Virus record (IMG/VR): IMGVR_UViG_2713896799_000009
Location: 1 to 37,500 of that record
DNA length: 37,500 nt
DNA from: a virus
Taxonomy: Duplodnaviria > Heunggongvirae > Uroviricota > Caudoviricetes
Reading direction: 5' to 3' (one strand)
Positions 1,854 to 33,137 of this stretch are shown in pieces. The position numbers were made by a program, and so were the translations under genes. Every line of letters begins with the position of its first letter. The first letter of the stretch is position 1. A model generated the notes under the pieces. The model was not told the origin of the DNA and searched no databases. It saw nothing but the letters and a program-made list of their open reading frames with translations.

Positions 1854-4800
1854 TCAGCTGATACTGATACCGGCTGTTGATTTCTTCATCACGACAACAA
1901 GAAGGTCGCTGATACTGGTCGTTGGCGTCCAGTTATTAGCACCATATGAAGAAACATTGAAAGTCAGGGTGACATGCCCGTGTCCGGCAGGCATATCGAT
2001 GACAGATGAAAATACCCTGCTGACATCCGTCGCGGGTTGCTGAAAGATTTCCTGTCCGTTCTTCAGCACCTGCAGCTTACAGGTTGAGTACCAGTATGAC
2101 TGTTGGTTGTTGCTGTTAAAGTTTTCATGCTTACCACCGCGAAACAGAACGGGTGGGATTACTATCTGACGGTCAAAAGCCTGGTCATCGTACACAGTGA
2201 CCGTTATTGTACCGCTGGCATAACTGCCATTTCTCGGAAAGGATTTTCCCACCGTTTTGACAATATCGCCTTCAATCTGATTGGCTGACAGTTTCCCCTT
2301 AATCTGACAGTTCTCATTTATCGTGACGTTGTTGAGCGTCCCGGAGTTCGCATTCACGTTACCGCTGATATCGGCATTTTTAGCGGTCAGCTTTCCGTCC
2401 GGTGTCAGGGAAAATGCAGGAGGATTACCGCCGCTGGTAATGGTGGGAGCCGTCAGATATTTCAGGAACACTTCATTCATGAATATCTGATCACCCTGAC
2501 CAACAAACATCGGTTTTGTGTTGCCATTTGCAGGATTAATCATCGCAATCCTGTCTGCCGCCAGCAGCACCTGACTCTGCATGCCGTCAGGGGTGTTCTC
2601 AATACCGGCACCGATACCCGCAATATAAAGGCGACCATCCTGCATCTGCTGCAGTTTCACGGCCCACATACTGTTCAGGTTATTACTGGTGTCCGTCTGA
2701 ACCTTTTGTATCTGCTGGATGGTGGCCTCCTGATCTCCCAGCTTCTGGTCCGTTGTCGTCATGATTTCACTGCTTTTTTGATCCACATACTGGCGAACCT
2801 GCGCTATCTGGCGTGCATTCTCCTCATTACTCTGACTGACCGTCTGCGTGAGTTCGCTGCTGACGTTATCCACTCTCTGGCTCACCTGTGATATACCCAG
2901 TGACAGCTCATCATTTTTTTTCGCAACCAGCTGTGTGAGGCTGTTTTCTGTCTCCCCGATTTTTTGGGTCACTTCAGCAATATCACTCTCTATCTGCTGA
3001 TTGATCTCATCCTCCAGTTGCTCAACTTCACTGCGCAATGCCGAGGCATTAATACGATCGTTCAGCTCCTGCCCCAGCAGGGTGCTGTTTATTTTCCCTT
3101 CAAAAAAATTGAGATACACCTCAGCATCATTAACCGGCCGGCCGACAGCTTCCACAAACGCTGATTTACCGACGATGTTCACACTGCGGATATAAAAGTA
3201 ATAATCATGGCCCGGCCTGATATTAATACTGGCAGCTGTCCAGTACATCGCCGTACCAAGATAGCGGGCTGTGGTTTCAACCTGCCGGATATCCGTAATC
3301 CGCTTTTCCGAGAACCAGAACTCAAACTGCACCGTCGGGTCATACACCGCAAGACGCGGGACTGCCGTTATCTGAAAATACCCCGGTATCAGTTCAATAG
3401 TGACAGGCGCTGCCGGTGCCGCAATCCGGAACGATACCGACGCCGGATCACCCTGCTGCCCCCGGGCATTTACAGCCCGGACCGTCAGCATATAACGCCC
3501 CAGCGCCAGTTGTCTGAAGCGGTATGTGGTTTCCGTCGTCCGGGCTGTGCTGACCAGCCGCTCACTGCCGTCGTCCGCTGCCACGGTCAGGCGAAGCATG
3601 AAGCTCACGCCCTTCACCACCTTCGGCGTGTCCCAGCGGGCCAGTACCTGATACTCCCCGCTGTCTGCGGTGACTTCGGCGGTAAGGTGCTGCACCGCTG
3701 GCGGTGTGACACCATTCACCGTGCCGCTCTGGTCGCCGTCAAAGTGCGCCCCGTTATCCACGATGGCTTCTTTTTCCGGTACATGCTGCACGGCAGTGAT
3801 GGCATACGTGCCGTCGTCGTTCTCACGGATACTCACGCAGCGGAACAGGCGCTGGCGCAGCGTCGGCAGCTTCAGCCCCCACACGCTGTATTCGGCAACG
3901 CCGTCAGGAACACGGCTCACTTTCACCTTCATGCCGTCGGTGACGGACTGAACCTCCACGCTGACCGGATTGCCATTTCCGTCAACCAGGCTTATCAGCG
4001 TGGTGCCGGAGGATGGCAGCGTGATTTCACGGTCGAGCGTCAGCGTCCGGGTCTGGCTGTTCACCGCCAGCACACGACCACCGGTGCTGATACCGGCATA
4101 GTCATCATCACAGATTTCAATAACATCGCCCGGTACATGGCGAAGCCCTTCGGCACCCACGCTGAAGTCCACGGTCTGCGTTTCCAGCAGTTCCGTTTTA
4201 ATCAGCCACAGCCCGGCGCGGTGCGCCTGCCCCCGGCTGGTACAGCCAAAGGCATCCATCTTCGTGACGTTACGACCGTAACGGGCAATGGCCTGCGTGT
4301 CCTCCACAAGCTCTGTTGCCGTCTCCCAGCCGTTGTCCGGGTCAATCCAGTTCACCTCAACGGCATTATGGCGGTCCTTCAGGGCGCTGAAGCTGTAGCG
4401 GAACGGCGCGCCATCATCCGGCATCACCACATTACTGCGGTTATAGGTCCACACCTTATCTGATGGTCGGTCCTGCACGAACGTCAGCGTCTGCCCGTTC
4501 CATACCGGCATACAGCGCATCGCCGAGCAGAAATCACTGAGCACATCCCACGCCTTGCGCTGTGTGGTCAGGTACGCATTACAGGTGATGCGCGGCTCCG
4601 TGCCGCCAAAACCGTCCGGCACCGACTGATCGCAATGCTGGCCGATGACATACAGCGCCCATTTGTCCACATCCGCCGCACCAAGACGTTTCCCCATGCC
4701 GTAGCGCGGATGGGTCAGCATATCCCACAGACACCAGGCCATGTTGTTGCTGTATGCCGGTTTTAACGTTCCGTCCCAGATACCGCTGTATTGCCGCGTC

Positions 4801-30559: not shown

Positions 30560-30985
30560 TCAATGCACTGCCACAGCATTTCCTGCCGGGCCACCACGGT
30601 TCATCTGATTGAAACCGGCGATTGCCACTGCGACAAAATCATCAGCGTCTCTCACCAGTCGCTCCCGCGTCTCCACCAGCTCCCGAAAATAAGCTGAACT
30701 GTGGCTGCGCATTCTGGCCACCAGCAAAGGTGGCATTGCCTTTTCGATCGCTGGTAACAACGCCTGAATTTTTTCAACTGCATCAGGGGTGTCTTTCTCT
30801 ACCCAGCGGAAAATTTTCTGGGTATTGCGAGCCAGGGCTTCCGGATGGCTGTCGTCATACAGTTCTGGGAACGTCATACCCAGTTCAAAATAAGCCCTGG
30901 TTATTTCAGCTGCCGGAACTTTTTCACCGTCCGGATGCGCCCAGGCATTCATCGCCATGCGGATGTGTTCATGCTTGATTTTCAT
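30560..30985 (-). CDS. YdaT-like protein (CII position in the early-right operon)
   Basis: 141 aa; second gene after the repressor-divergent promoter; resemblance to Rac YdaT from recall and genomic position. Confidence 0.55.
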   Translation of the reverse strand: MKIKHEHIRMAMNAWAHPDGEKVPAAEITRAYFELGMTFPELYDDSHPEALARNTQKIFRWVEKDTPDAVEKIQALLPAIEKAMPPLLVARMRSHSSAYFRELVETRERLVRDADDFVAVAIAGFNQMNRGGPAGNAVAVH

Positions 30986-31250
30986 GAATCAAGCTCCTAG
31001 AAAGTGGTTGTGTTAACGTTTTGGTATCTTCCAGCTCGGGCCAAATATTCATCCAATCAAAAGGCCTTAGTTGCTGACGTGTAACTTCACCATTACTGGC
31101 TCGCTCAATAAGGACACATAACGATGCCCCTAACACTTGACCTTTACTCAATGCCTTTCTTAGATAACCGATGCTGGTACCACACTCGCATGCAAACATA
31201 CGCTGTTCATCTGACGAAAGAGAATTGAGAAATATTCTTAATTCTTCCAT
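30969..31250 (-). CDS. Cro-like HTH regulator (YdaS-like)
   Basis: 93 aa; AAGGAG ribosome-binding site; first gene divergent from the repressor; helix-turn-helix-like segment (CGTSIGYLRKALSKG) and IERASNGEV motif. Confidence 0.6.
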   Translation of the reverse strand: MEELRIFLNSLSSDEQRMFACECGTSIGYLRKALSKGQVLGASLCVLIERASNGEVTRQQLRPFDWMNIWPELEDTKTLTQPLSRSLIHENQA

Positions 31251-31278
31251 AGCTACTCCTTAGTAAACACAGTAAAGA

Positions 31279-31322
31279 ATACCCACAGGTAAACAAAAGT
31301 CAATACCCACAGGTTGTTTACC
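31279..31322. promoter_or_regulatory. Putative right operator: two copies of ATACCCACAGGT with an inverted GGTAAACA/TGTTTACC pair
   Basis: Direct repeats at 31279-31290 and 31303-31314 in the 100-bp divergent intergenic region between the cro-like and repressor genes. Confidence 0.5.
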
Positions 31323-31350
31323 TTGCGGTAATCGCATCTATTATTTACCT

Positions 31351-31770
31351 ATGGACAAATATGAATTTAGACGACAGCAACTCATCAAAATTCGTGATGA
31401 GAAATGCGATGGTAAAGCGGTTAACGTGGCCAGAAAGATCGGGCGCGAGCCTTCTTATGTATCAAGAATGTTGTACCCAGAGGGGAAAAAGGGAAAAAAA
31501 CGGATCGCTGATGATATGGTGGAGATTATCGAAGAGTCCTTTGGGTTACCCCGGGGATGGATGGATGGTATCGTTTCATCATCAACGAACACAGCCTCCA
31601 GTTATGAAACAAGGGTTCTAACGCCACGACAACGTATTTTTTTAGATCTCTTAGACGAACTGCCAGAAAGTGAAGCGGATAACTTATTAAAAACTCTTGA
31701 AGAGAAAAAACAGTATTACAATATGATCTACGAAGAAATCCGTAAAAAGAAAGCACAAAACGCATCATAG
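31351..31770 (+). CDS. dicA: DicA-like prophage repressor
   Basis: 139 aa; N-terminal helix-turn-helix region (VNVARKIGREPSYVSRML); C-terminal LPESEADNLL...EE resembles the DicA C-terminus; divergent from the cro-like gene. Confidence 0.65.
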   Translation: MDKYEFRRQQLIKIRDEKCDGKAVNVARKIGREPSYVSRMLYPEGKKGKKRIADDMVEIIEESFGLPRGWMDGIVSSSTNTASSYETRVLTPRQRIFLDLLDELPESEADNLLKTLEEKKQYYNMIYEEIRKKKAQNAS

Positions 31771-31812
31771 CTCACCAAACAACTAGTCACCAGTTAAGAC
31801 ACCGCAAAAAGT

Positions 31813-31850
31813 TACCCATGGGTATTTACTTTTTAAATACCTATGGGTAT
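31813..31850. promoter_or_regulatory. Putative left operator: perfect palindrome TACCCATGGGTA plus a near-repeat ATACCTATGGGTAT
   Basis: 12-bp perfect palindrome at 31813-31824 sharing the TACCCA half-site with the right operator; lies upstream of the plus-strand early-left genes. Confidence 0.45.
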
Positions 31851-32035
31851 CCTTCTTTTCATACCAACCCACCCCGCCCCACAGAATGCAGGGCAATACT
31901 TCGAGTTACCAGGCAGTGGTCAGGGGTTAAGTAGCCAGCCCGAGGCGTAAGAACATGACGGCAGGGTTCAACTTTAATAACTATGCAGCAGGTTTTTGTT
32001 CCGCTACCCCGGCGTTAAGGGGAAATGAGGTCAGC

Positions 32036-32191
32036 ATGGATACTATCGATCTTGGCAACAGCGAATCTCTGGTATGTGGCGTGTTCCCCAACCAGGACGG
32101 TACGTTCACCGCGATGACGTATACCAAAAGCAAAACGTTTAAAACCGAAAATGGTGCCCGTCGCTGGCTGGAAAGAAACTCAGGTGAGTGA
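32036..32191 (+). CDS. ydfA: YdfA-like small protein (51 aa)
   Basis: MDTIDLGNSESLVCGVFPNQDGTFTAMTYTKSKTFKTENGARRWLERNSGE with GAGG ribosome-binding site; resembles Qin YdfA from recall. Confidence 0.7.
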   Translation: MDTIDLGNSESLVCGVFPNQDGTFTAMTYTKSKTFKTENGARRWLERNSGE

Positions 32192-32910: not shown

Positions 32911-32968
32911 TTTCTGGTGACGTTTGGCGGTATCAGTTTTACTCCGTGACTGCTCTGCCGCCCTTTTT
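32911..32968 (+). ncRNA. dicF: DicF small regulatory RNA
   Basis: TTTCTGGTGACGTTTGGCGGTATCAGTTTTACTCCGTGACTGCTCTGCCGCCCTTTTT matches the E. coli DicF sequence as recalled, including the 3' terminator hairpin; located between ydfC and dicB. Confidence 0.75.
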
Positions 32969-33137
32969 AAAGTGAATTTTGTGATGCGGTGAATGCGGCT
33001 AAGCGCACGCGGAACAGTTAAAACCAAAAACAGTGTTATGGTTGGATTCTCTGTATCCGGCGTTAATTGTTAACTGGTTAACGTCACCTGGAGGCACCAG
33101 GCACCGCATCACAAAACTCATTGTTGAGGGCGCGATA

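Follow-up and report, generated by a model that had tools for sequence, protein, structure and literature searches.

The stretch of 37,500 nucleotides analysed here (the window; positions 1 to 37,500 of IMG/VR virus record IMGVR_UViG_2713896799_000009, Caudoviricetes) is a largely complete lambdoid prophage of Escherichia coli, in which a gene for a putative repressor of 139 amino acids is flanked on both sides by copies of a single 12-bp dyad, namely TACC-YRYR-GGTA. Judging from the sequence and its conservation, we consider it highly probable that the five copies of this dyad are the operators of a lambda-type immunity switch. The repressor gene and a cro-like gene are divergent, dyads overlap two promoters that stand back to back between them, and a second cluster of dyads is found at the predicted early-left promoter on the far side of the repressor gene.

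Five dyads and three predicted promoters around the repressor gene

The dyad is the common unit of all repeats in the region. Three copies (starting at 31280, 31304 and 31319) are located in the 100-bp spacer between the repressor gene and the cro-like gene, and two (starting at 31813 and 31838) on the 3' side of the repressor gene. An initial annotation of this DNA had reported that ATACCCACAGGT occurs twice in the divergent region, and there are indeed exactly two copies (31279-31290 and 31303-31314); likewise, the perfect palindrome TACCCATGGGTA that it placed downstream of the gene is present at 31813-31824, with the near-copy TACCTATGGGTA (one mismatch) at 31838-31849. The TACCCA half-site by which it connected the two sets is a fair description, as the half-site over 40 related loci (see below) reads TACC-Y-R. 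The repeats and the half-site are therefore real, but the unit is better described as the 12-bp dyad, and the divergent region contains three sites instead of two, TACCTTGCGGTA at 31319-31330 having been overlooked.

This third site came out of the motif search for further copies that had been proposed along with the repeats. Exact matches to TACC-N4-GGTA occur four times in the window, where 0.23 would be expected by chance; all four reside inside the two spacers that flank the 139-codon gene, and none of 100 shuffles of the sequence gave four. The fifth dyad, TACCCACAGGTT at 31304, is found when one mismatch is allowed. At that stringency the matches elsewhere in the window are at the level of chance (10 outside the spacers versus about 7 expected). 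A candidate for a fourth upstream site, TACCTATGGACA over the repressor ATG, has two mismatches, lies in conserved coding sequence and is not retained as a site in the related loci; it was therefore not kept. Following lambda usage, the upstream and downstream sites are called right (OR) and left (OL) operators below, and the promoters of the cro-like gene, of repressor maintenance and of the early-left operon PR, PRM and PL, respectively:

31351..31770, plus strand: repressor gene, 139 amino acids; N-terminal Xre-type helix-turn-helix (HTH), mEp043-cI family.
31280..31291: OR1, TACCCACAGGTA, exact dyad; inside the PR spacer, covering the first 2 nt of the -10.
31304..31315: OR2, TACCCACAGGTT, one mismatch; between the two -35 hexamers, centre at -41.5 from the repressor ATG.
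31319..31330: OR3, TACCTTGCGGTA, exact dyad; overlaps the -35 (TTTACC) of the repressor promoter.
31813..31824: OL2, TACCCATGGGTA, perfect palindrome; directly adjoins the -35 of the early-left promoter.
31838..31849: OL1, TACCTATGGGTA; inside the spacer of the early-left promoter, its final TA beginning the -10.
31276..31303, minus strand: PR-like promoter of the cro-like gene; -35 TTGACT (31303-31298), 16-nt spacer, -10 TATTCT (31281-31276); 9/12.
31317..31344, plus strand: PRM-like promoter of the repressor gene; -35 TTTACC (31317-31322), 16-nt spacer, -10 TATTAT (31339-31344); 9/12.
31825..31853, plus strand: PL-like promoter of the ydfABC-dicF-dicB operon; -35 TTTACT, 17-nt spacer, -10 TATCCT; 8/12.
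31813..31859, plus strand: terminator-like element; perfect 16-bp stem, to which both OL dyads and four bases beside them contribute, with a 5-nt loop, followed by TCCTTCTTTT.

The scores denote the number of hexamer positions out of 12 that match the consensus. PR and PRM were called by a generic promoter scan. The start of PR is predicted near 31268-31270, with the cro-like ATG at 31250 preceded by a Shine-Dalgarno sequence (AAGGAG), and that of PL at 31860-31861. On its own strand PR reads [OR2]TTGACT-6 nt-[OR1 ...GGTA]TTCT, and PL reads [OL2]TTTACT-7 nt-[OL1 ...GGTA]TCCT. The two are superimposable, i.e. the second operator adjoins the -35 and the final TA of the first operator begins the -10, and PL is thus built exactly like PR. 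The PL region also aligns with a Rac promoter and with dicBp of the Qin prophage, the latter being an experimentally studied promoter (PMC10448788).

Conservation of the sites across related loci

The comparison comprised 44 loci (264 kb in total), namely 41 loci from a genome scan with domain alignment, together with mEp043, CharmingMan and the window itself; position matrices and start-site counts refer to 40 loci. The scan loci derive from Enterobacterales, Aeromonas, Neisseria, Burkholderiales, Nitrosomonadales and Xanthomonadales. Absence of the motifs from related immunity regions had been named as a point that would speak against their role, and we found that the dyads recur in most of the 43 other loci that encode this DNA-binding domain. 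Altogether, 128 exact TACC-N4-GGTA sites were counted in the 44 loci versus 3.8 expected; 66 of the 128 are situated between -90 and -25 from the repressor ATG, 61 downstream and one further upstream. In the 43 other loci the dyads are mostly found at -72/-73, -47/-48 and -32/-33 from that ATG: an equivalent of OR1 is found at -71 to -75 in 39/40 loci, one of OR2 at -47/-48 in 34 (nearly always degenerate in its final 2 nt, i.e. GGTT, GGGA or GGCC) and one of OR3, with a variable centre, at -32/-33 in 38. According to the matrices TACC and GGTA are essentially invariant and the centre is YRYR.

The promoters are conserved together with the sites. The TTGA of the PR -35 and position T6 of its -10 are retained beside OR2 and OR1 in 33-34 loci, and the ATTTACC of PRM in 33-34 out of 38. 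Counting the window, 32 of the 44 loci have a downstream pair of dyads 25-26 bp apart with the OL/PL design, in which the -35 is usually better (TTGACA). For instance, upstream of cI mEp043 and CharmingMan have three sites, at spacings of 25 and 15 bp, and their early-left promoter carries two more, 25-26 bp apart. The fixed distances and the recurrent downstream pair bear out the parallel with lambda OR and OL that had been drawn initially.

In principle, the repeats could be chance occurrences, or leftovers of recombination at a mosaic junction, without any regulatory role, as the region is indeed mosaic (Qin-like at 97% identity from 31998, Rac-like at 31860-31997) and short two-copy repeats are common. 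The outcome of the shuffles is at odds with this, and so are the excess of sites in the 44 loci and their fixed positions across bacterial classes. Moreover, variation is confined to the 4 bp in the centre, TACC and GGTA being invariant, which points to selection on the dyad and not to shared descent of the block. We regard this explanation as extremely improbable and, in effect, already refuted.

A second question is which protein reads the sites. The dyads might be read mainly or only by the YdaS-type Cro, with the 139-amino-acid protein binding elsewhere or not being the immunity repressor. The repressor is paired with a YdaS-like Cro homologue in the majority of the 44 loci, and its domain is accompanied by one in nearly all of those that carry the motif, whereas three distant homologues without the dyad are also without a YdaS-type Cro. 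Four Klebsiella loci (L005, L008, L009 and L011), on the other hand, have no cro-like gene nearby and yet keep sites at -73 and -33 as well as a downstream OL-like site or pair, which suggests, from few independent observations, that the sites follow the repressor and not Cro. The positions of the sites are, in addition, fixed relative to the repressor start and promoter. To our knowledge, operators are common to repressor and Cro in every characterised lambdoid switch. In the case of prophage CP-933P of E. coli O157:H7, the footprints of the repressor PaaR2 and of YdaS overlap (PMC8630535). We consider it unlikely that Cro is the main or sole reader, and retain the dyads as probable operators of the repressor.

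The regulatory regions of Qin and Rac, whose repressors differ, contain no TACC-N4-GGTA; Rac operators are of the TTAGGC/GCCTAA type. In the dyad-less loci L040 and L044 the recognition helix reads SISHM/TISHL and not SYVSRM, and a different inverted repeat or none is found upstream. In the four Klebsiella loci, which encode repressors with a Peptidase_S24 domain, OR2 is replaced by TTTGCTATATTTT (around 2900-3000), and the repressor may have been kept there without its lytic partner.

The downstream pair in the window has a further property, namely that its RNA folds into a hairpin of -22.9 kcal/mol (z -5.6) with G-C pairs at 5/16 positions of the stem and the U-tract tail UCCUUCUUUU. This hairpin, which is the most stable among 32 OL pairs compared, is located 3' of the repressor stop codon, ends at the PL start and is the sole terminator-like element between the two, i.e. 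before the next operon. (A match to the Rfam family mir-2041 at 31813-31849 was below threshold and was discarded as being the hairpin itself.) An alternative view would be that the main role of the pair is rho-independent termination behind the repressor gene and that its likeness to the upstream repeats is incidental. Against this, the pair is kept in 32/44 loci mostly without a stable hairpin or T-tract, the relatives mEp043, L020 and L043 carry a separate GC-rich terminator upstream of OL, and the pair interlocks with the -35 and -10 exactly as OR1 and OR2 do. Because the dyads are so widely conserved without a hairpin, an exclusive role as terminator is very unlikely. A dual role as operator and terminator is plausible, and we infer with moderate confidence that the OL pair of the window serves, in addition, to end the repressor transcript immediately ahead of the PL start. 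If true, the toxic dicB operon would be insulated from read-through from the repressor gene.

A wider inverted repeat, ATTACCTGAAAATTCAAGCAGGTAAAC (TACCTG-N10-CAGGTA), was observed just upstream of the OL pair in mEp043 (L002, 4053-4078); it recurs in the enterobacterial loci L010, L012, L014, L015 and L021, about 40 bp upstream of OL2, whereas the window does not have it. The repeat may represent an additional, third OL element whose spacing differs, or the site of another protein.

The start of the repressor transcript can likewise be approached from the conserved promoter. The lack of an obvious Shine-Dalgarno sequence before the repressor ATG, and the leaderless transcript that had been suggested on that ground, both find support: the upstream sequence ATCTATTATTTACCTATG has no purine-rich stretch, and the -10 of PRM ends 6 nt before the ATG (31351), which is fixed as the start by the invariant residues M1, K3, Y4 and E5. 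In 33/40 loci a distance of 6-7 nt separates the ATG from the end of a -10 hexamer with A2 and T6, versus at most 10 loci at any other offset, and strings resembling a Shine-Dalgarno sequence occur in only 5/40 loci, where they overlap the -10 or stand immediately 5' of it. This placement of the -10 provides good indirect support for a leaderless repressor mRNA. The paaR2 gene of CP-933P is leaderless, has OR and OL operators and is activated at low repressor levels (PMC8630535). In twelve of the loci (L020, L026, L031, L032, L034, L036 and L038-L043) the cro-like ATG follows the PR -10 by about 6-10 nt (e.g. GGGTATTGTTTGCGCATG), and both divergent genes may be leaderless in these beta-proteobacterial and Xanthomonas-type loci.

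The repressor protein and its genomic setting

The repressor is annotated as 'hypothetical protein'. It matches PHROG 5736 ('transcriptional regulator', phrog_5736) over its full length (E 4e-70), and a Pfam search returned zero matches; the protein is without a Peptidase_S24 domain. Of 5,426 complete E. coli genomes, 822 match the region that bears it at a coverage of 80% or more. The N-terminal 75-85 or so residues share 65% identity with cI of the lambdoid phage mEp043, which is a plaque-forming phage, and 70-82% with many repressors of 221-242 amino acids that do have Peptidase_S24 (PF00717) and that come from Salmonella, Klebsiella, Edwardsiella, Pantoea, Yersinia and others. The pattern of the domain is MDKYE...REPSYVSRML...KKRIADDM...GW.D, with 30 columns invariant over 14 diverse members and the recognition helix around PSYVSRML. 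An AlphaFold model of the repressor (mean predicted local distance difference test score 83) has HTH helices at residues 23-30 and 34-41 and a disordered linker at 77-87, after which the C-terminus consists of a helical hairpin only, distantly resembling that of DicA.

The name 'DicA-like' that had been given to the protein stands for the position of the gene and for the last 50 or so residues, but not for the DNA-binding head, which is of the mEp043-cI type and not of the DicA/P22-C2 type. The DicA profile (NCBIfam NF007257 / PRK09706) matches residues 86-136 only (23.9 bits versus a cutoff of 101), and BLASTP against DicA of K-12 gives 33% identity over 46 C-terminal residues (E 1e-7) and no similarity in the N-terminal part, for which there is no HTH_3 or P22-C2-like match either. 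RacR was considered as a relative, and the comparison shows it to be unrelated. A sequence search of the Protein Data Bank (PDB) gave no chain at E < 0.07, the Z-alpha domains at E about 0.08 being taken as chance. The best structural match of the model, Rep of Salmonella phage SPC32H (PDB 5d50, Rep-Ant complex), is weak (E 8e-4, template-modelling score 0.46, 16-24% identity), and the further structural matches are other Xre-type regulators.

Within the DNA-binding domain, the codons for GKKGKK (31482-31503) hold A5 and A7 runs. Database proteins P0010-P0018 (135-136 amino acids, some from complete E. coli genomes) begin at an out-of-frame ATG (31361) and return to the repressor frame at KKRIADDM, i.e. 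they are one-base frameshift alleles in the A-run, and represent either truly inactivated repressors or homopolymer sequencing errors.

Apart from the immunity region, the window carries genes for the tail and head, for terminase, lysis, Q and RusA and for replication, with an integrase at its right end. The features next to the switch are:

30969..31250, minus strand: cro-like gene, 93 amino acids, YdaS family, phrog_35; divergent from the repressor gene.
30560-30985, minus strand: YdaT/CII-like gene, left of the spacer.
31860..31997, plus strand: early-left leader; homologue of the leader that precedes ydaG/ydaF in the Rac prophage.
32912-32963: DicF small RNA (Rfam RF00039, 76.7 bits).

A replisome-organiser gene is likewise found on the minus strand, left of the spacer. 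On the plus strand to the right of the repressor gene are found ydfA, ydfB, ydfC, DicF, dicB, ydfD and a large exonuclease gene. The RefSeq annotation of an identical locus gives the same order, with the repressor just upstream of the ydfABC-dicF-dicB operon that it would control. From 31998 on (ydfA and beyond) the DNA shares 97% identity with Qin, a prophage of E. coli K-12. The leader to the left of this point shows homology to Rac that begins at CATACC, i.e. at the predicted start of the PL transcript. The Rac-like leader and the Qin-like DNA to the right of PL together imply that the immunity module, from cro to PL, is a separate mosaic block.

The YdaT repeat TTGATT-N6-AATCAA has an exact match, TTGATTTTCATGAATCAA, at 30975-30992, where the cro-like gene meets the YdaT-like gene, and includes the YdaT start codon. 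In CP-933P the YdaT repeat at the ydaS/ydaT junction coincides with operator OM and the establishment promoter PRE (PMC9986795), and TTGATTTTCATGAATCAA is probably the CII-type establishment site of the prophage in the window.

Some further observations concern the early-left operon. Its leader of about 140 nt (CATACCAACCCACCCCGCCCCACAGAA...GTTAAGTAGCCAGCCCGAGGCG...) is conserved with Rac and not with Qin, and 31860-31997 matches no Rfam family. The open reading frame at 31955-32191 (78 amino acids) is longer than RefSeq ydfA (DUF1391; start 32036, 156 nt), and its N-terminal extension is probably untranslated because DUF1391 covers residues 29-76 only. DicF is followed by a sub-threshold STnc100-like match at 32975-33115 (38.6 bits versus a cutoff of 47).

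The proposed switch and its relation to known systems

The arrangement suggests the following mechanism. The existence of the sites, their non-random placement, their conserved register with the promoter hexamers and the domain homologies are shown by the sequences, whereas repressor binding, PRM activation, the leaderless start and termination are all inferred. Dimers of the 139-amino-acid repressor would bind the dyads via the Xre-type HTH. Occupation of OR1 (in the PR spacer and at the start of the -10) and of the weaker OR2 (adjoining the -35) would switch off the operon of the cro-like, YdaT and replication genes, and OL1 and OL2, with their PR-like geometry, would do the same for ydfABC-dicF-dicB. 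A dimer at OR2 probably stimulates PRM, which would start at or beside the ATG; its centre at -41.5 corresponds to the position from which lambda cI activates PRM when bound at OR2. As OR3 overlaps the PRM -35, it would mediate negative autoregulation at high repressor levels, and the YdaS-type Cro probably uses the same sites. Transcription of the repressor gene could end at the hairpin and U-tract of the OL pair, immediately ahead of the PL start. Because the repressor has no S24 domain, induction would not proceed via RecA-dependent autocleavage; it may use an antirepressor, as is the case for DicA, on which the antirepressor Rem acts (PMC10448788).

Several points weigh against this interpretation. 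We found no published binding, transcript-mapping or reporter data for this protein or for members of its family, in a literature that we covered incompletely. Nearly every locus has both the repressor and Cro, so that the comparison does not cleanly separate which of the two reads the sites, and the outliers with a changed recognition helix are also without Cro. In phylogenetic terms, the 44 loci are not independent of one another, the four from Klebsiella being close relatives. PL was not called by the generic promoter scan, its hexamers matching the consensus at 8/12 positions. The sites OR2 and OR3 are 15 bp apart in the window versus 23 bp in lambda, and the logic of autoregulation may differ. 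Finally, the C-terminus is neither of the S24 nor of the lambda type, so that cooperativity, looping and the route of induction may not follow those types.

As in lambda, the repressor and cro-like genes of the window are divergent, and the two promoters that stand back to back between them are interleaved with three dyad operators, of which a weaker one in the middle adjoins the -35 of the repressor promoter at the position of a class-II activator. Another set of operators is placed at the early-left promoter, 3' of the repressor gene and on the same strand, and the repressor gene has no Shine-Dalgarno sequence and a -10 placed for a leaderless start. The distance between the first and second operator is also similar (about 24-25 bp; OR1-OR2 is 24 bp in the window). 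In contrast to lambda, with its 17-bp sites, the dyads have 12 bp, only two OL sites are clear and OR and OL are about 0.55 kb apart; the repressor lacks the S24 autocleavage domain, Cro is of the YdaS type, the CII analogue is YdaT, and no N gene or nut system is evident in the window.

The DicA/DicC/dicBp system of Qin resembles that of the window in the position of the repressor gene upstream of ydfA-ydfB-ydfC-dicF-dicB, in 97% identical DNA with promoters that align, in a short repressor without S24 that has a homologous helical region of about 50 residues at its C-terminus, and in having operators both between the divergent genes and at the left promoter (PMC10448788). DicA bound at its operator Oc, TTGTTAGTCATAACTAACAA, represses dicC and activates dicA (PMC3441716), and also dicBp is repressed by DicA (PMC10448788). 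The N-terminal DNA-binding domain in the window is nevertheless unrelated to that of DicA, the partner is YdaS-like instead of DicC, and Oc is unrelated to the dyad: the window spacers contain no Oc-type operator (TTGTTAGT..ACTAACAA) and hold TACC-N4-GGTA dyads instead, which the Qin regulatory regions lack.

In mEp043 cI, CharmingMan and the S24-type relatives the binding domain is 65-82% identical, and the dyad, the number and positions of the sites and the YdaS-like Cro are the same, but the repressors have 221-242 amino acids and a Peptidase_S24 domain (they are presumably RecA-inducible), where the window protein has a DicA-like helical C-terminus; OR1 and OR2 are mostly 25 bp apart versus 24 bp in the window. 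We found no published operator analysis of the mEp043-cI-type family, its dyad or the mEp043 operators, with the same restriction on literature coverage.

The PaaR2/YdaS/YdaT system of CP-933P is a lambda-like switch with a leaderless repressor, a YdaS-family Cro, YdaT as CII analogue and both OR and OL clusters (PMC8630535), and it shares with the window the YdaT site at the ydaS/ydaT junction (PMC9986795). PaaR2 operators, however, are 18-bp repeats of the GTTTAGTAA type, and the paaA2-parE2 toxin-antitoxin genes do not follow the repressor in the window. Rep of SPC32H, lastly, is also short and without S24, with an Xre-type HTH and a helical C-terminal part. It is controlled by an antirepressor, whereas Pfam named none among 10 other open reading frames of the window that were scanned, several of which had no Pfam match.

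Systems of this kind are textbook knowledge, and studies exist of close analogues in E. coli prophages, i.e. DicA/DicC (PMC3441716, PMC10448788), PaaR2/YdaS/YdaT (PMC8630535, PMC9986795) and RacR in Rac; the general view of how lambdoid switches work is left unchanged. Somewhat fresh are three points: an invariant OR geometry is conserved very widely, one DNA-binding head carries exchanged C-terminal modules, and operator and terminator overlap. The association of the mEp043-cI-type domain with TACC-YRYR-GGTA at about -72, -47 and -32, plus a downstream pair, is first defined here and was not found in the literature. Tentatively, the domain, the YdaS-type Cro, the tripartite operator and the leaderless start could constitute a portable cassette that ranges from Enterobacterales to Neisseria and Xanthomonas, in which the head is fused to S24 or DicA-like tails, so that the mode of induction and not the immunity specificity is switched, and in which, in the case of the window, the OL pair has been shaped into a terminator that insulates dicB. 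The analysis provides a testable operator consensus and a promoter map for an uncharacterised repressor. The natural domain swaps, i.e. the same head with an S24 or a DicA-like tail, could help to show in what way the tail governs cooperativity and induction, and the consensus should allow the sequence-based prediction of immunity groups for a repressor family that extends across several proteobacterial orders.

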